Shown in pieces: positions 2,982 through 43,699 of a stretch of DNA of 64,000 nt (position 1 is the stretch's first letter; each line of letters opens with the position of its first letter). The notes beneath the pieces are model-generated. The model was given only the letters and a program-made list of their open reading frames with translations, was not told the DNA's origin and searched no databases. The position numbers and the translations under genes are program-made. The stretch covers positions 129,763 to 193,762 of the forward strand of contig CAVUQH010000024.1 of NCBI GenBank assembly GCA_963743525.1. The letters run 5' to 3'. This DNA is from an uncultured delta proteobacterium (GTDB lineage: Bacteria; Myxococcota_A; Polyangia; Haliangiales; Haliangiaceae).

Positions 2982-3124
2982 GATGCGGAGTTTATGTCGC
3001 CCAGGCGCACCGCGGGCGCTCGGCTCGCCAAGTTGACACGGCTGGCACGCGCAGGCGACGCGGTTTCGGGCAGTTCAGCGGTGGCCCGGGCCTTGCTGGA
3101 GGAGCCGAGCAAAGGAGACCCCTG

Positions 3125-13050: not shown

Positions 13051-14385
<1,335 letters not shown>

Positions 14386-14390
14386 CGGTG

Positions 14391-15299
14391 ATGCGCGTGG
14401 AACGCCTGGGACGCTACAAGATCGTGCGCCTGCTCGGCGAAGGTGGGATGGCACGAGTCTATCTGGCGCGCGCGTTCGGCGCGAGCGGCTTCGAGGCGCT
14501 GGTCGCGCTCAAGCTGCTGCGCCCCGAGCTGCGCGGTGCCGGCGAGCCGCAGCGGCTGCTGATCGAGGAGGCGCGCCTGGGCGCCCGCCTGCGCCACCGC
14601 AACCTGGTGGCCGTCCACGATCTGGCCGTCGACGACGGCGCCTACTACGCGGTCATGGAGTACGTCGACGGCGCCGACCTGGCGTCGCTGCTGCGCGCCG
14701 CACCGATCCCGCTCGAGCTGGCGCTGCTGTGCGTCGAGGAGGTGGCGCTGGCGCTCGAGCACGTCCACGCGGCGACCGACGAGCGCGGCCGCCCGCTCGG
14801 CCTGGTCCACCGCGACGTCAGCCCGGCCAACATCCTGGTGTCGCGCGCGGGCGAGGTGAAGCTGGCCGACTTCGGCATCGCCAAGGCGACTGCGCTGGCC
14901 GACCAGACGCTGACCAACGTGCGCAAGGGCAAATACGCGTACATGTCACCGGAGCAGGTCGCGGCCGATCGGCTCGACGCCAGCAGCGATCAGTTCGGCC
15001 TGGGCGTGACCCTGGTCGAGCTGATCTGCGGCCGCCGCCCGTTCGACGGTGCCTCGGTGATCGACACCATGGACAACATCAAGGCGGCCGCGCCGCCGCC
15101 GTGGCTGACCGAGCTGCCCGGCGACCTGGAGGCGATCGCCCGGCGCTGCCTGGCCCGCGACCCGGCCGCGCGCTTCCCTTCGGCCGCAGCGCTCCGCCGC
15201 GCGCTGTCGGACGCCCGGCGCACGCGGACGCCGGTATCGGCCCCGGATCTGGGCGCCTGGCTGCGCGGGGTTGCCTCCGGCGCCGCCGCCGGCGTATGA
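14391..15299 (+). CDS. Hanks-type Ser/Thr protein kinase (soluble, about 300 aa)
   Basis: [18 protein letters not shown] (Gly loop). [21 protein letters not shown]. Start 14391 (alternative 14367). Confidence 0.9.
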
Positions 15300-30815: not shown

Positions 30816-30985
30816 GTAGGATATTGTAGGTACAAACCGCTGGGGGCGGCAAGAAAACCGCCGGTGCTGCTCCGCGACGGCACAGGCTGCTCCGGCGCGA
30901 ACCACGCCCGCCACGCGGGTTCGCCCACTTGCCCGCGGCACGGACGTTGCTCTTCTCCGCGATGAACAGCCGGAGGAGACGCCGC

Positions 30986-33016
30986 ATGAGTGAACGCGAA
31001 GTCCGTGAGCGCGACATCCTGGTCGCCCCCAACGAGTACGCCTACGTCCAGGACCTGACCAAGGGCGACATCGTCCTCTACGTCGGGCCGACCAAGATCA
31101 GCCTGTCCAACACCGAGCGCATGGTCATCCTGCGCGACGGCCGGTTCGTGCCGGTGCGTGGGGACGAGGCCGGTCTCGGCGTGCACCCGTTCGTCGAGGC
31201 CAGCTCGTCGCAATACATCATCCTCGACAACCCGGCCGCCGACGCCGAGGCCAGGCCGGTCAAGGGCGCCTGCTCGGCAGTGCCGCTGAGCATGGGCCGC
31301 ACGATCGTCGTGCCCGGTCCCGCCCGCTTTCCCCTGTGGCCGGGGCAGCGCGCCCAGGTGATCGACGGCCACCAGCTGCGCGACGACGAATACCTGGTGG
31401 TGCGCGTCTACGACGACGACGGCTCGGGCGCACCGATCGGCACCGAGCAGATCATCCGCGGCAGCGACGTGTCGTTCTACGTGCCGCCCAGCGGACGCGA
31501 AGTGGTGCCCAACGCCGGCGGCCGCTACGAACGCCAGGCCTGGCGACTCGACGGCCGCGGCGGTCTGCACCTGCGCGTGACTGCGCCGTTCGAGGCCGGT
31601 GACGGTGACCAGGTGCCGGCGGGCAGCTACCAGCCTGGGCAGGATCTGTTCCTGCGCGGGCGCGAGGGCTACTTCTTCCCCACCGATTCGCTCGAGGTGC
31701 TGGGCGCCGTCGAGCCGATCGCGCTGGCCGAGCGCGAGGCGATCTACGTGCGCGACCACGCCACCGGACGGATCGCCACCGTCGCCGGGCCGCGCACCTT
31801 CCTCCTCGATCCGATCCGCGAAGAGCTGGTGCGCCGCCGCCTGGATCCGGCGACCCGCGTCCATTATCACGTCGCCGCGGCCGGCGACGATCGCGCACCC
31901 ACCATCTATGTGCCGCCCAGCACCGCGGTCATGGTCACCGCGCGCGACCGCCGCGAGGTGGTAATCGGCCCGACGACCCGCGTGCTCGCCTACGACGAAG
32001 AGCTGGAGACCCTGACGCTGTCGACCGGCCGGCCCAAGTCCGACGACCATCTGTTGCCCACCTGCTTCTTGCGCATCCAGGGCAACAAGGTGTCGGACCG
32101 GGTCACGGTCAAGACCGCCGACCACGTGGAGCTGGAGGTCAACCTGTCGTATCGAGTGTCGTTCGCCGGCGACAGCGAGCGCTGGTTCAACGTCAAGGAC
32201 TACGTCGGCCTGCTGTGCGACCACCTGGCGTCGATCATCCGCGCCGCCGCACGGGCGACGCCGATCGAGTCGTTCCACGCCCGGTCAACCGACGTTCTGC
32301 GCACGGCGATCCTCGGACCGCGTGCCGACGGCGGCGAGCGCGAGGGACGCCACTTCGTCGAGAACGGCATGTGGGTCTACGACGTCGAGGTGCTCGACGT
32401 GCGCATCCTCGACGACGACGTCAACGAGCTGTTGTGCGACGCCCAGCGCGTGGCCATCGTCTCCGACATCACCCGCAAGCAGGCCGAGCTGCGCCTCGGC
32501 GACCAGGCGCTGGAGCAGCGGGTCGAGCGCGAGATCCTCCAGGCCCGCGCCGAGACCGACGCCGCCCGCGCCGCGCTCGAGGCCCGCACCCGCGAGCTGG
32601 CACTGGCCGAGGCCGGCACCCGCGTCGAGGTCGATCGCCTCGAGCGAGTCGGCCGCGCCGCCGCCGAAGCCGACGCCCTCGAGCGCGTCGAGCGAACCCG
32701 CCTGGCTCTGGCCGCAGACGAGAGCGAGGTCGAGCGCCGCCGCCTGGAAGCCCGCGCCGCCGCCTTCCGCTCCGAGATGGAAGCGATCGCCCCCGAGCTG
32801 ATCGCCACGCTCAAGAGCGTCGCCGGGCAGAAGCTCGCCGGTGAGCTGTCGCGCAACCTCTCTCCGCTGGCGATCCTCGGCGGCGACAGCGTCGCCGACG
32901 TCGCCTCACGCCTGCTCGCCCACCTGCCGCTCGGCCCTGGCCGGACCAATGGCAGCGTCGACCTCCGCGCCCTGCTCGGCCTGGGAGACGACCCCGACGA
33001 GCCCGCGGACGCATAG
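30986..33016 (+). CDS. Major vault protein (MVP) homolog: N-terminal MVP repeats, shoulder domain and coiled-coil cap-helix region
   Basis: Strong RBS ccggaggagacgccgcATG. ILVAPNEYAYVQDLTKGDIVLYVGPTKISLSNTERMV resembles MVP repeat 1 ([37 protein letters not shown]). LSTGRPKSDDHLL...TADHVELEVNLSYRVSF...DYVGLLCDHLASIIRAAARATPIESFHARSTDVLRTAILG aligns to the MVP shoulder region (SAGRPK...TADHARLQLQLAYNWHF...[40 protein letters not shown]). Long Glu/Arg/Ala coiled coil as in the cap-helix domain. Confidence 0.85.
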   Translation: MSEREVRERDILVAPNEYAYVQDLTKGDIVLYVGPTKISLSNTERMVILRDGRFVPVRGDEAGLGVHPFVEASSSQYIILDNPAADAEARPVKGACSAVPLSMGRTIVVPGPARFPLWPGQRAQVIDGHQLRDDEYLVVRVYDDDGSGAPIGTEQIIRGSDVSFYVPPSGREVVPNAGGRYERQAWRLDGRGGLHLRVTAPFEAGDGDQVPAGSYQPGQDLFLRGREGYFFPTDSLEVLGAVEPIALAEREAIYVRDHATGRIATVAGPRTFLLDPIREELVRRRLDPATRVHYHVAAAGDDRAPTIYVPPSTAVMVTARDRREVVIGPTTRVLAYDEELETLTLSTGRPKSDDHLLPTCFLRIQGNKVSDRVTVKTADHVELEVNLSYRVSFAGDSERWFNVKDYVGLLCDHLASIIRAAARATPIESFHARSTDVLRTAILGPRADGGEREGRHFVENGMWVYDVEVLDVRILDDDVNELLCDAQRVAIVSDITRKQAELRLGDQALEQRVEREILQARAETDAARAALEARTRELALAEAGTRVEVDRLERVGRAAAEADALERVERTRLALAADESEVERRRLEARAAAFRSEMEAIAPELIATLKSVAGQKLAGELSRNLSPLAILGGDSVADVASRLLAHLPLGPGRTNGSVDLRALLGLGDDPDEPADA

Positions 33017-36946: not shown

Positions 36947-37710
36947 CGCTGGCAGTGGCGACGCTGGCCGGTGCCTGCTCCGGCCAGTCGCCGGCGACCG
37001 ACGCCGGCGTCGGGGGTGCCGACGCCGCGCGCACCACCGACGCCACACCGCCGGCCGACGCCGGCCCCTGCCCCGCCGACATGGCGCTGGTCGGCGCGAC
37101 CTGCATGGACTACTACGAGGCGCCCAACCTGCCCGGCGCCCTGCCGCTGGTGATGTACTCGTTCCACGAGGCCGAGGCGTGGTGCAGCGCGCGGCAAAAG
37201 CGCCTCTGCTTCGAAGACGAGTGGCTGACCGCCTGCGCCGGTGCCGATGGCAACGCCTATCCGTACGGCAACACCCGCGTTCCCGGCCTGTGCAACGACG
37301 AAGAGACCTGGCTCACCTACGATCAGACTCTGCTCAATGGCTGGCCCGACGGCGTCTCGGCCCCCGACGTGACCTCCCTCGACGATCTGCTGGCGCGAGC
37401 GCGCGCGGTATCGCCGGCGGCAAAGGCAGCGGCCGACCACGTCGCCGCCCTCTACCAGGGTGAAGGCAGCGGTGACAACGCCGACTGTCAGGGCGCCGCC
37501 GGTGTGCTCGACCTGGTCGGCAACGTCGAGGAGTGGACGCGGCGACGCACCAGCGGCGGGACCGAATACGACGGCAACCTCAAGGGCCGCTACTGGGCCG
37601 AGTCGCGCACCTGCCAGAGCAACGTCACCGTGCACGCCGATCCGTTCCGTTTCTACGAGATCGGCTTCCGCTGCTGCCGCGACGCTTACCCCGACGCCGC
37701 GTCGGACTGA
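36904..37710 (+). CDS. Formylglycine-generating-enzyme (FGE-sulfatase / SUMF1 / EgtB / PvdO) family protein, lipoprotein
   Basis: Lipobox LTLAVATLAGAC. FGE-sulfatase signatures AEAWCSARQKRLCFEDEWLTACAG, AYPYGN, VLDLVGNVEEWT, YEIGFRCCRD. Start overlaps the last 43 nt of the repeat-protein gene. Confidence 0.8.
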   Translation: MQGHRPRQRRLLPLTLAVATLAGACSGQSPATDAGVGGADAARTTDATPPADAGPCPADMALVGATCMDYYEAPNLPGALPLVMYSFHEAEAWCSARQKRLCFEDEWLTACAGADGNAYPYGNTRVPGLCNDEETWLTYDQTLLNGWPDGVSAPDVTSLDDLLARARAVSPAAKAAADHVAALYQGEGSGDNADCQGAAGVLDLVGNVEEWTRRRTSGGTEYDGNLKGRYWAESRTCQSNVTVHADPFRFYEIGFRCCRDAYPDAASD

Positions 37711-39752
37711 TCGAGCAGGTCGCGTACGCGACCGGCCAGGTCATCGATGGTGAACGGCTTGGCCACGAAGGCGACACCGTGGCCAAGCTCGTCGGCGGCC
37801 ACCAATCCGGCCGGCGCGTAGCCGGAGACGAAGATGACCCGCAGCTCCGGGTCCGAGGCGCGCATCCGCCGAGCGAGCTCGTCGCCGCGTATCCCCGGCA
37901 TGGCGACGTCGGTGATCAGCAGAGCGATCGGATGACGGCCACCGTCCATCGCCGCCAGTGCCTCTTCGCCGTGCGCGGCGGCGACGACCTCGTAGCCGCG
38001 CGCCCGCAGCCCTTCGGAGACCACGCGGCGCAAAATTCGCTCATCCTCGACCACCAGAATGCGCTCGGTGCCGTCAAAGGACCGGCGACTGACGGGCACC
38101 TCGCTGGCGCTGGCTCCCTCGCCCTCGCGGTAGGGCAGGTAGACGGTGAAACGCGCACCGCCGGTCGGCCCCGCCTCGACGTCGATGAAGCCACCGCTCT
38201 GGCGGACGATGCCGTAGACCGTGGACAGTCCGAGGCCGGTTCCCTGCCCCGGCTCCTTGGTGGTGAAGAACGGCTCGAAGATGTGCGGGCGAACCTCGTC
38301 GGAGATGCCATCGCCCTGATCGGTCACTTCGATGCCGACGTAGGTGCCGGCCGTGGCCTCGCGCTCCTCGTCGTCAGGAAGCTGAACTATGAAGGTGCGC
38401 ACGTCGAGCCGCCCGCCCCGAGACATGGCGTCGCGCGCGTTGACCACCAGGTTGACGATCACCTGTTCGAGCTGGGCCGGGTCGGCGACCACCACACAAC
38501 GCCGGTCGTCCAGGGACACTTCGAGCTGAATGTCGTCGCCGAGCAAGCGGCCGAGCAGCGTCTGCAACTCGGAGACGATGTCGTTGACGTTCAGCTCGCG
38601 CGGCTCGAGCACCTGACGGCGACTGAACGCCAGCAGTTGGCGGGTCAGCGTGGCCGCGCGCTCACCGGCGGCGCAGACGTCGTCCAGATCGCCGGCCAGC
38701 GCGGCATCGGTGGCACGTCGCCGCGCCCGGGTACCCAGCATCAGGATGATCGTGAGCAGATTGTTGAAGTCGTGCGCGATGCCGCCAGCCAGGCGGCCGA
38801 TGCTCTCCAGCCTGCGCGCCCGCTGCAGCTGCGCCTCGCTGCGCAACAGCGCTTCCTGCGCCCGCTCGCGCTCGGCGTGCTCGGCCTCGATGCGCCCGGT
38901 TGCCAGTCGCACTTTGCGCCGCAGCGACCACGACCAGGCCAGCGCCAACCCGGCGGCCGCGGCGAGCATGGCGCCGGCGAACAGCAAATACCGCGGCAGC
39001 GACGTCGAATCGCGCGGCTCGCCGAACCAGCGGTCGTAGATGACCTCGTACTCGCCGTTGGCCTTGATCGTGGCCAACCCGTGCTCGAGCCCAACCGCCA
39101 GATTGTGACGACCCGCGCGCACGGCGAACGCGTGCGGTCGGGGGTTGAGCGGCGCGCCGACACCGATCACGTTATCGATGCCCAGGCGTCGCAGGGCTGC
39201 TCGCCCGGTGACCTCGGACACCAGGGCGCAATCAGCCTCCCCGTCCGACAGCCGCGTCAGCGCCTCCGGCTGGCTGAGCGCGGGCAGCGGAATGACCCCT
39301 CGTTCCAGGTGCTCCCCGGTGTACGAGGCCGCCTGGAACAGCACCTTCTTGCCCGACATGTGCCCGGGAATGCAAGCAGTGGTCTCGCCGCGGCGGACGA
39401 AGATCTGGTCGTGCGCCATGCCGAACGTGGCAGCGAAATCGACCACCTCGGCGCGCTTGGCCGATACACACATGTCCGAGAGGTCGATGCCCTCGCCGTT
39501 GTCGAGCCGATCGCGGATGGTCGGCCACGGCCCCAGCTCGACCTGGATGTCCCAGCCCGCGGCGTCGCCGATGGCCCGCACCAGGTTGACGGTGAACCCG
39601 TGAGCGTGGCCGTCCGGGTCCTTCCACGAGTACGGCGGGAAGTCCTCGTTGGCGCCGAAAACGACCACAGGCCGCTTCTCCGAGCGCGCGTCATCGGCCG
39701 CAATGGAGAAGGCAGCAATAGCAGCAACCCCCAGCAGTCCGCCTTTACCCAC
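37686..39752 (-). CDS. Hybrid sensor histidine kinase: periplasmic solute-binding (SBP_bac_3-like) sensor, TM, HisKA, HATPase_c, receiver domain
   Basis: Signal peptide [22 protein letters not shown]-box [13 protein letters not shown]1 (DQGDGI), G2 (GTGLGLS) boxes. Receiver ILVVEDE...DVAMPG...K. Start set at an internal GTG; the track ORF starts at a TTG at 39947. Confidence 0.85.
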
Positions 39753-39888
39753 TGCGCACAATGTAGCAGGTTCCAGGACAACCTTCGACCAGGGTACAGC
39801 TTCCCGGTTCTCAGGGGAGAACCCTGCCGACTCAGCCAGGCCTGGTCGTTGACCACGGCTGCGCCCTTCTGCCAAGGTGCGCAGCCCG

Positions 39889-40939
39889 ATGACGTCGCGC
39901 AATCTATCGATCACGCTGCTTGCTGCTGCGCTGTCGGCCTGTGGCAATCATGGCGCGATCGGCACGGACGGCGGCGACGGTGGACGGGTCGGCGACGATC
40001 GCCAGATCGACGTCTTCTCCGCCGAGCCGATCTACTTCGGCGATCCAGATCGGCGCACGGTCGACACCGAGGTGACCCTGCCCGGGGCCAATCTCTGGTA
40101 CGAAAACGTCTCGCTCCACCTGGGCCTCTCCTGTCCGACCGGCGGCTGCGACTGGTGGGATCGAGTCGGGCGCGTCTCCGTGGTCGACAACCCCGGCAGC
40201 GCCGACGAGCGAGAGATCGAGATCGCCCGGTTCGTCACGCCGTATCGCATCGGCGGCGACTTCGACATCGACGTCACCGATGTGTCGCCTCTGCTCCGCG
40301 GCACGCGCACCATTCGGCTGTTCATCGACACCTGGGTCGGTCCCGGCGACGCGCAAGGAGCCGGCTGGCTGGTCGACGTGTCGCTCGACTACACCGGGGG
40401 CATTGCCACGCCCGAGCCGTACGCGGTGATCCCGATTCTGGTCGCCCGAGAGCGTCGTCTACGGCGACCCGGCGCAACCGACCGCCCGCCGGACCACGGT
40501 CACGGTGCCCGCCGGCGCCGGCGACGTGGCCTTGCGCGGCATCGTCACCGGTCACGGCCAGGGCAACGCCGAGAACTGCGCCGAGTTCTGCTCGCGCGAG
40601 CACACCTTCCGCGTCGGCAGTGTCAACGACACCCGCACCATCTGGCGCGACGACTGCCTGACCACCGCGGTCCCCGATCAGCAAGGCACCTACACCCTGG
40701 CGCGCGCGGGCTGGTGTCCGGGGGCCACCGTTCACTACTGGTTCGGCCTGGTCTCGGCCGGCGTGCCCGCCGGCGGCGGCGACGTCGACGTCTCCTACGA
40801 CGTGGCGGCCTACGAGAACACCTGCCGCCCCGACGCCACGTCGTGCACCGGCTGCGTCGGTGGCAGCTGCGACTACGACGGCGGCTCCCACACCGAGCCG
40901 CACTACCTGGTTTCGGCCCTGCTGGTCCTGTACCGCTGA
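39889..40939 (+). pseudogene. Peptide-N4-(N-acetyl-beta-glucosaminyl)asparagine amidase F (PNGase F) homolog, lipoprotein, interrupted by a 1-bp frameshift near 40440-40460
   Basis: Lipobox LLAAALSAC. CDWWDRVGRVSVVDN...EIARFVTPYRIGGDFDIDVTDVSPLLRG...LFIDTWV aligns to PNGase F (CDEWDRYANVYVKN...EIGRFITPYWVG...EIDVTDFKSLLSG...IYTETWL). C-terminal half continues in the ORF 40505 frame (LRGIVTGHGQGNAENCAEFCSREHTF...AGWCPGATVHYW vs TTISGWGHAKPYDAGSRGCAEWCFRTHT...AGWCPGMAV). Confidence 0.75.
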
Positions 40940-40972
40940 GCCGCCTGGCCCGGGTCGAGCTATGCTCTGCAG

Positions 40973-41464
40973 ATGTCCGGCGAGGACGACGAGGATCTGT
41001 TCAGCCAGGCGATGCAGGGCGTCGACCGAATCGAGAATCGCGACCGCGTCGGCCCCAAGCGCAAGCGCACCGGCGCGAAACGGATCGCGTCCCCGCCTCG
41101 GCTGAAGCCCGACGGCGACGGCGACGGCGGTCGCGTCGCCAGCGTCAACGACAAGCGAATGGCCGACCTGCGCGCGGGACGGATCGCGCCCGACGAACGC
41201 CTGGACATGCACGGTCTGCGCGCCGACGACGCCCGCGCGGTGCTGGCCGAACGCGTACGCGCGGCGGCCGAGCGCGGTGCCCGCTGCCTGCTGGTGATCC
41301 ACGGGCGCGGCGCCCACTCCGGCGGCGCCGGCGTCCTGCCCGAGCTGGCGGCCGACGAGCTGATGGGCGGCCGCGCCGCCGCCCACGTGCTCGCGTTCTG
41401 TCGCGCGCAGCCGAAAGACGGCGGCGCCGGAGCGCTGTACGTGCTGCTCCGGCGCCGGCGCTAG
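40973..41464 (+). CDS. Smr domain protein (MutS2-related small nuclease)
   Basis: LDMHGLRADDARAVLAERVRAAAERGARCLLVIHGRGAHS matches the Smr signature (LDLHG...IHGKG). Confidence 0.8.
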   Translation: MSGEDDEDLFSQAMQGVDRIENRDRVGPKRKRTGAKRIASPPRLKPDGDGDGGRVASVNDKRMADLRAGRIAPDERLDMHGLRADDARAVLAERVRAAAERGARCLLVIHGRGAHSGGAGVLPELAADELMGGRAAAHVLAFCRAQPKDGGAGALYVLLRRRR

Positions 41465-41482
41465 ACTGCGGGTTGACTCAGC

Positions 41483-42265
41483 TCAGTGGCAACCGCCGCA
41501 GTCGCCGCCGAAGCAGCCCGGGCAGCAGTCCCAGCCGCAGTACCAGTGGTCGCAGTAGACGCAGGCCTCGTCGTGGAGGCAGCAGACGTCGTACCACGAG
41601 CAGCCGAGGTCGCACTTCTCCACTTCGGCCTGTCCGTCCACCGGCATCGTGCGGTAGTGCTGGACGTACGGCGCGACCATCAGGTTGGTGTGGACCAGGC
41701 CGTTGGGATCGTCGAGGTTGTAGACCTGGTCGTCCCACCAGGTGTCGCGGGTGCTGTCGGTGGCGTTGGGATCCTGCAGCTCGCGGATCAGCACTTCCTC
41801 CTGCCACATCAGGGCAAAGCGCACCGTTGACCGATCCATCTTGTTGGTGGCGTCGAACAGCTGCTGCAGCGCCTTGCTGTAGTGGGGCAGAAGCGTGTTG
41901 ACCGGCAGCGCCGACGGCTGCTGCGCGGCCGCGCGGGCGAGCATCCCCAACGAGGCGCCGACGTCCTGATCGGTGCCGAGCGGCACCGTCAGGCTGGTGA
42001 CCAGCTTGTTGTCCTCGGTGCGCACGGTGGCCTGGACCTCGTCGCCCACGACCTTCGACTCCAGCCGCAACGCCACGTCGCCGTCGCGATAGGTCGCGTA
42101 GATGCCGTTGACCGTGTCGCCCTCATACAGGTTGAAGCCGTTGACAATTGGCTCGTTGTGCACCGTGTCGCCCGTGGGCGGGCTGGAGATGTCGGTGGTG
42201 CAGGCGCCCGCGAGCAGAGCCCCGAACGCAAACGTCACAACTTGCAGTCCTACGAAACGCTTCAT
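41483..42265 (-). CDS. Lipoprotein with extreme Cys-rich C-terminal tail
   Basis: Lipobox ALLAGAC. C-terminus CDLGCSWYDVCCLHDEACVYCDHWYCGWDCCPGCFGGDCGGCH (16 Cys in the last 42 aa). Confidence 0.7.
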   Translation of the reverse strand: MKRFVGLQVVTFAFGALLAGACTTDISSPPTGDTVHNEPIVNGFNLYEGDTVNGIYATYRDGDVALRLESKVVGDEVQATVRTEDNKLVTSLTVPLGTDQDVGASLGMLARAAAQQPSALPVNTLLPHYSKALQQLFDATNKMDRSTVRFALMWQEEVLIRELQDPNATDSTRDTWWDDQVYNLDDPNGLVHTNLMVAPYVQHYRTMPVDGQAEVEKCDLGCSWYDVCCLHDEACVYCDHWYCGWDCCPGCFGGDCGGCH

Positions 42266-42411
42266 CTTGGTCCTCTTCTCCGGCGCGCAACGCGGCGTGT
42301 CACGCCGCTAAACCCTCTTGAAGCGGATGTAAGAGCAATCACCATGCCATCGGACAGAACTTGTTATCCGACCAGTTTCGTTGAAGGAATTGTGAGTGTG
42401 GCCTCCCGCGC

Positions 42412-42487
42412 TACGTTCAAATCGTCAAAGCTTTGAACAAGATCCGTTCAAACATTGGATCTTGAACAATGCGTTATTCTGAACGGC
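42412..42487. promoter_or_regulatory. AT-rich upstream region with a cluster of GTTCAAA/TTTGAAC inverted half-sites (candidate operator/promoter for the S1 protease gene)
   Basis: gttcaaatcgtcaaagctttgaacaagatccgttcaaacattggatcttgaacaatgcgttattctgaacgg: at least five TGAAC/GTTCA half-sites in alternating orientation, immediately 5' of the GTG at 42488. Confidence 0.45.
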
Positions 42488-43699
42488 GTGGGGCGGCGAC
42501 AGCGGCTACGGGCAGCGCTCGCGCTCGCGGGTTGGGTGGCGGTTTGCGCCGGCGGCTGCGGCGACAGCGACCCGGGCGCCGACACTTGCGGCGACGTTCG
42601 ATCGATCCTGCCCATCTACAACGGCACCACGGCGCCGCAGTACGTGCCGCTGTCGGCGGGACAGATCGAGGCCATCGGCACCTTCGGTCCGTGCAGCGGC
42701 ACGCTGGTCGCGCCGACCTGGGTGCTGACGGCGGCCCACTGCGGTGTTCCCGTGGGAACGGAGTTCTGTGTCGGCGCCCAGCCCGACACCCCCGATCAGT
42801 GCGTGGCCGCGACCCGCGTGGTCGATGCGCCGGACGCCGACCTGGAGCTGGTCGAGCTGGCCAGCGACCCGCGCCAGCTGCTGCCGTCGCTCGAGCCGCT
42901 GCCGATCGGAACCGCGGCGATCAATTCGAACTGGATCGGACGCACTGCCGAGGCCTCGGGCTACGGCCGCACGGAGACCGGCACCACCGGCACGCGGCTG
43001 TTCACCGCCGAGCCGATCGTCGCGGTCAACGACACCAGCATCTCCATCGACGGCGAGGGCGCCCGCGGCACTTGCGTGGGCGACTCCGGCGGGCCGCTGC
43101 TGGTGATGGCCGGCGACGGCACCATCCGCGTGGCCGGCGCGCTGAGCACCGGCGCCGAGAGCTGCCTGGGCGTCGATCACTTCACCCGCACCGACGCCAA
43201 CCGCATCTGGATCGAGGGCTATACCGGACCGACCATCGTCAACGGCGCCGGCTGCGACACCGTTGACCCGGTTGGGCGCTGCTTCGACGGCACGGCCATT
43301 TACTGCGCCGGCGACGCGGTCCGCGCCGACCCGTGCACCGCCAGCGACCCCTGCGGCTGGGACCCGACCGCCGGCGGCTACCGCTGCATCTCCGGACCGG
43401 ATCCGTGCGGCGGCGTCAACGGCTACGGCAGCTGCGACGGCGACGTCGCCCGCTGGTGCGAACAGGGCCAGCCGCGCAGCCGCGACTGCGCCGCGTGCGA
43501 GCAGCGCTGCGACCTGGTGGAAGCTCGCCTGGGCGTCTACTGTGTCGACGACCCGTGCCCGGGGCTGGACTTCTTCGGCCGCTGCGACGGCCAGGTCGCG
43601 CACTGGTGCGAGGCCGGGCAGGAGCGCACCCGCGACTGCGCCGCCGACGGCCTGACCTGCCAGTGGGCGGGCGACACCATCGGCTACTACTGCCAGTGA
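42488..43699 (+). CDS. Trypsin-like (S1) serine protease lipoprotein with C-terminal Cys-rich repeat modules
   Basis: Lipobox LALAGWVAVCAGGC. TAAHC, DLEL, GDSGGP catalytic motifs. Two Cys-rich repeats at the C-terminus: GSCDGDVARWCEQGQPRSRDCAACEQRCDL and GRCDGQVAHWCEAGQERTRDCAADGLTCQW. The track ORF starts at an upstream TTG at 42455. Confidence 0.85.
   Translation: MGRRQRLRAALALAGWVAVCAGGCGDSDPGADTCGDVRSILPIYNGTTAPQYVPLSAGQIEAIGTFGPCSGTLVAPTWVLTAAHCGVPVGTEFCVGAQPDTPDQCVAATRVVDAPDADLELVELASDPRQLLPSLEPLPIGTAAINSNWIGRTAEASGYGRTETGTTGTRLFTAEPIVAVNDTSISIDGEGARGTCVGDSGGPLLVMAGDGTIRVAGALSTGAESCLGVDHFTRTDANRIWIEGYTGPTIVNGAGCDTVDPVGRCFDGTAIYCAGDAVRADPCTASDPCGWDPTAGGYRCISGPDPCGGVNGYGSCDGDVARWCEQGQPRSRDCAACEQRCDLVEARLGVYCVDDPCPGLDFFGRCDGQVAHWCEAGQERTRDCAADGLTCQWAGDTIGYYCQ

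Follow-up and report, generated by a model that had tools for sequence, protein, structure and literature searches.

The array of TGAAC half-sites that abuts an S1 protease gene is probably, to judge from its sequence and its distribution, an enhancer (UAS) serving a sigma-54 promoter of the divergent gene on its other side, and an enhancer-binding protein (bEBP) would be its ligand. The array and a conserved -24/-12 element occur together upstream of every homologue of the divergent gene that could be retrieved. A bEBP enhancer combined with a sigma-54 promoter is a standard bacterial regulatory architecture; the recognition motif is new. The coordinates of the features are collected in Table 1, where they refer to the window, that is, the whole 64-kb stretch of DNA that was analysed.

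Table 1. Half-sites, promoter elements and genes discussed in the text. Centres are relative to the predicted sigma-54 start site; positions are those of the window.
Feature	Position	Strand	Sequence or type	Centre	Remarks
Half-site 1	42415-42421		GTTCAAA	-94.5 (hexamer)	hexamer identical in L001
Half-site 2	42432-42438		TTTGAAC	-112.5	left arm of central dyad; identical in L001
Half-site 3	42446-42452		GTTCAAA	-125.5	right arm of central dyad; GTACAAG in L001
Half-site 4	42462-42468		TTGAACA	-141.5	20-26 bp 5' of protease GTG
Half-site 5	42480-42484		TGAAC (core only)	~-158.5	weakest member of the array
Central dyad	42433-42451		TTGAAC-N7-GTTCAA	-118.5	arrangement most often common to the loci
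Sigma-54 type -24/-12 element	42349-42334	-	TGGCATGGTGATTGCT		GG at 42348/42347, GC at 42336/42335
Predicted transcription start, divergent gene	42323-42324	-			12 nt past GC, from sigma-54 promoter geometry
Divergent gene	41483-42265	-	260-aa Cys-rich probable lipoprotein		candidate regulated gene
S1 protease gene	42488-43699	+	trypsin family (PF00089)		lipoprotein-type signal peptide, Cys-rich C-terminal repeats
bEBP gene	13051-14508	-	FHA + Sigma54_activat + HTH_8		sole bEBP in the Pfam-scanned window ORFs
Sigma-54-like element, L007			TGGCACGTCGACTGCA
Sigma-54-like element, L008			TGGCGCACTCGTTGCA
Sigma-54-like element, L009			TGGCACCCGCGCTGCA
Sigma-54-like element, L011			CGGAACCTTCGTTGCA		weak -24 (CGGAAC), 9/12
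Sigma-54-like element, L013			TGGCACACAGAGTGCT
Sigma-54-like element, L014			TGGCATCTCCGTTGCT

Half-sites and a putative sigma-54 promoter between two divergent genes

The protease gene is divergent from its left neighbour, a minus-strand gene, across a shared intergenic region of 222 bp (42266-42487). The initial annotation had described within this region five TGAAC cores in alternating orientation, separated by n10, n7, n9 and n11, in DNA that is AT-rich for the genome and directly upstream of the protease start. This description is accurate: the cores and spacers match the sequence exactly over 42415-42484, the GC content is 49.5% over 42300-42499 as against 70.4% for the window, and the array ends 4 bp 5' of the GTG at 42488. 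A repeat finder reports as units the 8-mers CGTTCAAA (two copies, 31 bp apart) and TTGAACAA (two copies, 29 bp apart).

The heptamer GTTCAAA occurs five times on the two strands of the window against an expectation of 0.95, a count that none of 100 shuffles reached, and three of the five copies belong to the array. The hexamer TTGAAC, with 12 occurrences against 7.8 expected, is not over-represented window-wide; four of the 12 are packed into 53 bp of the array. When the 140-bp zone was shuffled with its dinucleotide composition preserved, the four hexamers observed there compared with a mean of 0.115, and none of 2000 shuffles reached four. A search of the window for a second copy of either GTTCAA-N12-TTGAAC or TTGAAC-N7-GTTCAA returned nothing beyond chance-level matches with three mismatches.

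Sigma-54 promoters were scored against the consensus TGGCAC-N5-TTGCW (also written TGGCACG-N4-TTGCW), the GG-N10-GC spacing being obligatory. The element TGGCATGGTGATTGCT has a single mismatch to this consensus (11 of 12) and the correct spacing; it is intergenic, lies about 66 bp to the left of the array and faces the divergent gene. Because this element would set the transcription start near 42323, the half-sites fall at -94 to -158, which is the classical position of the UAS bound by enhancer-binding proteins of the NtrC family. For the divergent gene, the element predicts a 5' UTR of about 58 nt, with the start codon at +59; in seven other loci (see below) the start codon lies at about +27 to +106 from the predicted start site. 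This putative leader also contains a perfect palindrome with 8-bp arms, GCGGCGTG-T-CACGCCGC (42292-42308), in a segment that is missing in the closest orthologous locus. A recurrent false positive of the promoter scan was encountered within the coding sequence of the divergent gene: the codons for WYDVCC (TGGTACGACGTCTGCT; window 41581-41596(-)) score 10-11 of 12 against the sigma-54 consensus, and this mimic recurs at the equivalent place in L001, L002, L007, L011 and L013 (six loci with the window).

The scan of a genome collection yielded a single orthologous locus, L001, from a delta-proteobacterial MAG, in which both proteins are about 79% identical to those of the window and have the same divergent arrangement. 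Its sigma-54 element is identical to the window copy. Between the two genomes, the 25-bp sigma-54 block (42327-42351) is 96% identical and the stretch with half-sites 1-3 (42409-42452) 84%, as compared with 41% for the predicted 5' UTR, 54% for the spacer between promoter and array and 57% for the stretch with half-sites 4 and 5 (42453-42487). There are hence two conserved footprints, the sigma-54 block and half-sites 1-3, amid otherwise diverged intergenic DNA. Half-sites 1-3 are the only ones that L001 retains: it has TCGGACA at the place of half-site 4, with a TTTGAAC displaced by about 7 bp instead, and TGGCG at the place of half-site 5. Conservation in orthologous upstream regions, which the initial annotation had named as a check on its proposal, is thus borne out. 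The annotation had also taken the overlapping palindromes to suggest cooperative binding by a dimer; the array is non-random, conserved and dyad-symmetric, properties that would fit an oligomeric regulator acting at multiple sites.

Distribution of the array in the divergent-gene family

In a database of 5.8 billion proteins, a profile search started from the divergent protein recovered only nine clusters. Eight independent loci were compared (the window, L001, L007, L008, L009, L011, L013 and L014), after duplicates had been merged (L010 with L009, L012 with L011) and with the remote homologues P0128 and P0129 left out. Apart from L001, the proteins of the other loci are 39-65% identical to that of the window (BLASTP). 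All eight loci carry a GG-N10-GC element, matching the consensus at 10-11 of 12 positions in seven of them and at 9 of 12 in L011, and all eight have three to five half-sites with the TGAAC core, whose centres range from -72 to -180 relative to the predicted start. Taken together, the eight zones from -200 to -60 (1120 bp in total) hold 26 TTGAAC/GTTCAA hexamers where dinucleotide shuffles predict 1.22, an enrichment of about 20-fold. In the whole of the 143 kb of sequence examined there are 46 such hexamers, and clusters of at least three per 100 bp occur solely upstream of members of the divergent-gene family. The same 143 kb contains 24 sigma-54-like matches; at least two hexamers accompany only those that lie upstream of a family member.

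The half-site consensus is T-TGAAC-R: among 34 sites, 26 have T at -1 and 29 have a purine (A or G) at +5. The variants TTGTAC/GTACAA recur in L007, L008 and L014, and L007 has a single full TTGAAC/GTTCAA hexamer. The dyad TTGAAC-N6/7-GTTCAA is present in six loci (window, L001, L007, L008, L009 and L013), and the half-sites of L009 and L011 are mostly direct repeats that recur about every 12 bp. Since spacing and orientation vary in this way between loci, the geometry is looser than that of a single fixed operator.

The genomic neighbourhoods of these loci have little in common. The divergent gene has as neighbours a GST and an M36 peptidase in L008, an FG-GAP protein in L009, a TPR protein in L011 and a luciferase-like protein in L013. 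Since the flanking genes differ among these four loci, the array travels with the divergent gene. In six loci (L007, L008, L009, L011, L013 and L014) the visible flanks contain no adjacent protease, although the contigs of L007 and L014, at about 1.2 kb, show little flank.

The S1 protease and competing readings of the array

The start of the protease is most likely the GTG at 42488, which gives a signal peptide, is kept in L001 and leads into the reading frame of the trypsin domain; it is on account of this start that the array abuts the protease gene. An ATG at 42469 belongs to a different frame. A scan of 42200-42560 for a sigma-70 consensus promoter gave no match, and a plus-strand sigma-54 promoter for the protease was rejected on its spacing, which is incorrect in the candidate TTGG-N12-GC (42455-42472). 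By eye, a -10-like hexamer (TATTCT/TATCCT) can be seen 7 nt 5' of the GTG in the window and in L001; it would fit a leaderless protease transcript whose -35 region would lie inside the array.

Many Myxococcota, Haliangium and Sandaracinus among them, have homologues of the protease (42-59% identity). A TGAAC array is absent upstream of three independent homologues of 53-56% identity (P0003, P0006 and P0010; L003, L004 and L005, with L006 a duplicate of L005), whose loci are not syntenic with the window. Two of these loci have features of their own: in L004 a sigma-54-like element, TGGCACCCGCCTTGCG (2985-3000), stands immediately 5' of the start of P0003 (56% identity), and in L005 a gene for Trypco1 (trypsin co-occurring domain 1; 2326-2793) lies directly upstream of the protease homologue, a gene for which the window has no counterpart. 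The single locus from a metagenome scan, L002, is on a contig about 90% identical to the window at the DNA level. It lacks the 709 bp that correspond to 41772-42480, a deletion that takes with it 165 codons from the 5' end of the divergent gene, the sigma-54 promoter and all but one of the five half-sites; its protease ORF is intact, with 95% amino-acid identity. A second deletion in L002, of about 700 bp (window 40085-40769), has removed part of a PNGase-F-like gene. The deletions may be genuine, or they may have arisen during assembly.

The initial annotation had assigned the array to the protease promoter, which would make the half-sites operator or activator sites for a cooperative dimeric regulator of sigma-70 type. 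The position of the array at the very edge of the protease gene invites this interpretation, as do the adjacency of protease and divergent gene in both the window and L001 and the -10-like hexamer that both genomes have before the GTG. It nevertheless appears improbable, and the comparison does not support the assignment: in all eight independent loci the array tracks the divergent gene and its sigma-54 promoter, and it follows that gene to the six loci whose visible flanks have no adjacent protease. Of the protease loci, L001 is the only other one in which the array is conserved, and there the divergent gene occurs as well; half-sites 4 and 5, those nearest the protease, are precisely the ones that L001 has not kept. 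Because the distant proteases are without an array, the L002 protease is intact without one and there is no sigma-70 consensus promoter in 42200-42560, we attribute the array to the divergent gene. That it touches the protease start is a consequence of the short intergenic region shared by the two genes in the lineage of the window. An intermediate possibility is that the bEBP, once bound, switches on the divergent sigma-54 promoter while also repressing or gating an overlapping protease promoter, in the manner of PexR at ahpC, where repeats that serve a sigma-54 promoter down-regulate the sigma-A promoter that they overlap (PMC12754779). Half-sites 3-5, at -42 to -4 from the protease GTG, have a geometry that would suit such a role. 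We regard this as possible but somewhat unlikely, given that the two genes adjoin in two close relatives only, that the distal half-sites are poorly conserved, and that no protease promoter was located.

The inverted repeats could also be thought to act as RNA, forming a leader hairpin or attenuator in either transcript, and the window sequence 42405-42490 does fold well (z = -4.1 for the plus strand and -3.2 for the minus strand). The fold is, however, not conserved (z = -0.14 for the orthologous segment of L001 and -0.7 for L011), the mostly direct repeats of L009 and L011 are unable to pair, and no compensatory changes preserving a common hairpin are seen across the eight loci. Moreover, the array is upstream of the predicted sigma-54 start site, and an Rfam scan of 41800-43000 found no family, its one snoRNA match (E = 0.43) being meaningless. 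A role in RNA structure is therefore very improbable. Least credible of all, to the point of being negligible, is that the half-sites have clustered by chance in AT-rich intergenic DNA and have no function; the ordinary window-wide frequency of TTGAAC could be cited in its favor, but the local clustering was not matched by any of the 2000 shuffles and in eight independent loci the hexamer is enriched roughly 20-fold at one and the same place.

Proposed mechanism, related systems and the divergent protein

If the array is the bEBP enhancer of the sigma-54 promoter of the divergent gene, as we consider probable, sigma-54 RNA polymerase would sit on the -24/-12 element as a closed complex, while dimers of a bEBP (an AAA+ ATPase with a C-terminal HTH) would occupy the TTGAAC(A/G) half-sites. 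The central dyad would be the core site, flanked by further half-sites. The bound dimers would form an active oligomer some 95-160 bp upstream of the start, which would reach the polymerase via DNA looping and bring about the open complex through ATP hydrolysis. As the array covers the last 75 bp upstream of the protease GTG, binding of the bEBP may also, as a secondary effect, hinder or modulate transcription of the protease.

Several known systems resemble this arrangement to a greater or lesser extent. The LexA SOS boxes (the Cheo box GAAC-N4-GTTC and the alphaproteobacterial GTTC-N7-GTTC) have GAAC/GTTC cores in common with the array; unlike them, the array has GAAC-N6/7-GTTC, comprises three to five sites always accompanied by a sigma-54 promoter, and has a target without a link to DNA repair. 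Spacing and context thus rule out its being an SOS box. The UAS of the XylR/DmpR family have TTGATCAA-like half-sites, a consensus for which the literature searched gave no confirmation. They share with the array an A/T-rich core of the TTGA-CAA type and inverted repeats about 120-180 bp 5' of a sigma-54 promoter, but they belong to another host phylum and to an aromatic-catabolic context that is absent here. Enhancers of the NtrC type (for example glnAp2 of E. coli) have dyad sites about 70-160 bp 5' of the -24/-12 element and 10-30 bp apart, which are needed for oligomer assembly. In Myxococcus xanthus, the bEBP NmpR has at least two GCGCA-N5-TGCGC sites per promoter (PMC11841059). With both of these the array shares several dyad-symmetric sites upstream of a -24/-12 promoter, whereas its motif, TTGAAC(A/G) with the dyad TTGAAC-N6/7-GTTCAA, is different and its orientation and spacing are less regular; in addition, the only bEBP seen in the window is an FHA-domain protein and not a receiver-domain NtrC. 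PexR, also of M. xanthus, recognizes CACCG-n6-CGGTG at peroxide-defence targets; at katB and ahpC it has arrays of three to six interrupted (pseudo)palindromes 5' of sigma-54 promoters, and at ahpC these repeats also overlap and repress a second promoter, of the sigma-A type (PMC12754779). The likeness here extends to the multi-repeat array, the sigma-54 promoter and the myxobacterial host, and the overlap at ahpC parallels that of our array with the upstream region of the protease. Unlike the PexR targets in peroxide defence, the predicted target of the array is an uncharacterised Cys-rich lipoprotein.

The FHA-containing bEBP gene of the window is a candidate, located 28 kb from the array and with no TTGAAC sites nearby; nothing ties its product to the motif. 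No bEBP gene was found to adjoin any member of the divergent-gene family among the visible neighbours, and a literature search did not find a TTGAAC-type bEBP site or enhancer. The genome, bacterial and Myxococcota-like, also has a major-vault-protein-like gene: the window ORF 30830-33016(+) matches Pfam MVP_shoulder (E = 1.8e-30) and Vault_3.

The 260-aa product of the divergent gene begins with a signal peptide, has an invariant cysteine at position 22 and ends in a tail with 13 cysteines. In the family alignment this tail has the invariant pattern C-x-L-x-C-x-W-x-D-x-C-C-x-H-D-x-x-C-x-x-C-x-x-W-x-C-x3-C-x2-G-C-F-G-G-x-C-G. An exact-sequence look-up of the window protein returned no record, Pfam gave no family (nothing at E up to 10) and a sequence search of the PDB no match. 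The AlphaFold model has a mean pLDDT of 69, with a confident core of a five-stranded sheet and helices (residues 40-165) and a Cys-rich tail that is disordered (pLDDT below 50); Foldseek against the PDB found nothing significant for it (best E = 0.08). The CC-x-HD element recalls the catalytic motif of phospholipase A2, a likeness that is unsubstantiated because the Pfam, PDB and fold searches gave nothing significant; the identity of the protein as a secreted phospholipase A2 is accordingly not supported. Two further genes near the divergent gene deserve mention. One, 2.3 kb away (37686-39947(-)), encodes a hybrid histidine kinase that senses through a periplasmic SBP_bac_3 domain and ends in a receiver. 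The PNGase-F-like gene of the window (39877-40939(+)) extends over two frames, with N-glycanase_N in the frame of ORF 39877-41901 and N-glycanase_C in that of 40430-40939, which suggests a frameshift or a pseudogene.

A more far-reaching scenario, which we think distinctly unlikely, is that the TTGAAC(A/G) arrays define the regulon of an uncharacterised Myxococcota bEBP with a novel family of secreted Cys-rich CC-x-HD lipoproteins as conserved primary target, and that in the lineage of the window the enhancer has been co-opted as a bidirectional switch, turning the lipoprotein on and the S1 protease off or gating it. If true, one DNA element would couple two extracellular, possibly predation-related, factors. 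As it stands, a conspicuous repeat array has been re-assigned from the gene that it touches to the gene on its other side, and a tiny uncharacterised family has gained a testable cis-regulatory module consisting of a -24/-12 promoter and an enhancer centred on TTGAAC-N6/7-GTTCAA. Myxococcota have dozens of enhancer-binding proteins, few of them with known binding motifs; a conserved motif together with a conserved target provides a handle on one more myxobacterial activator-regulon pair.
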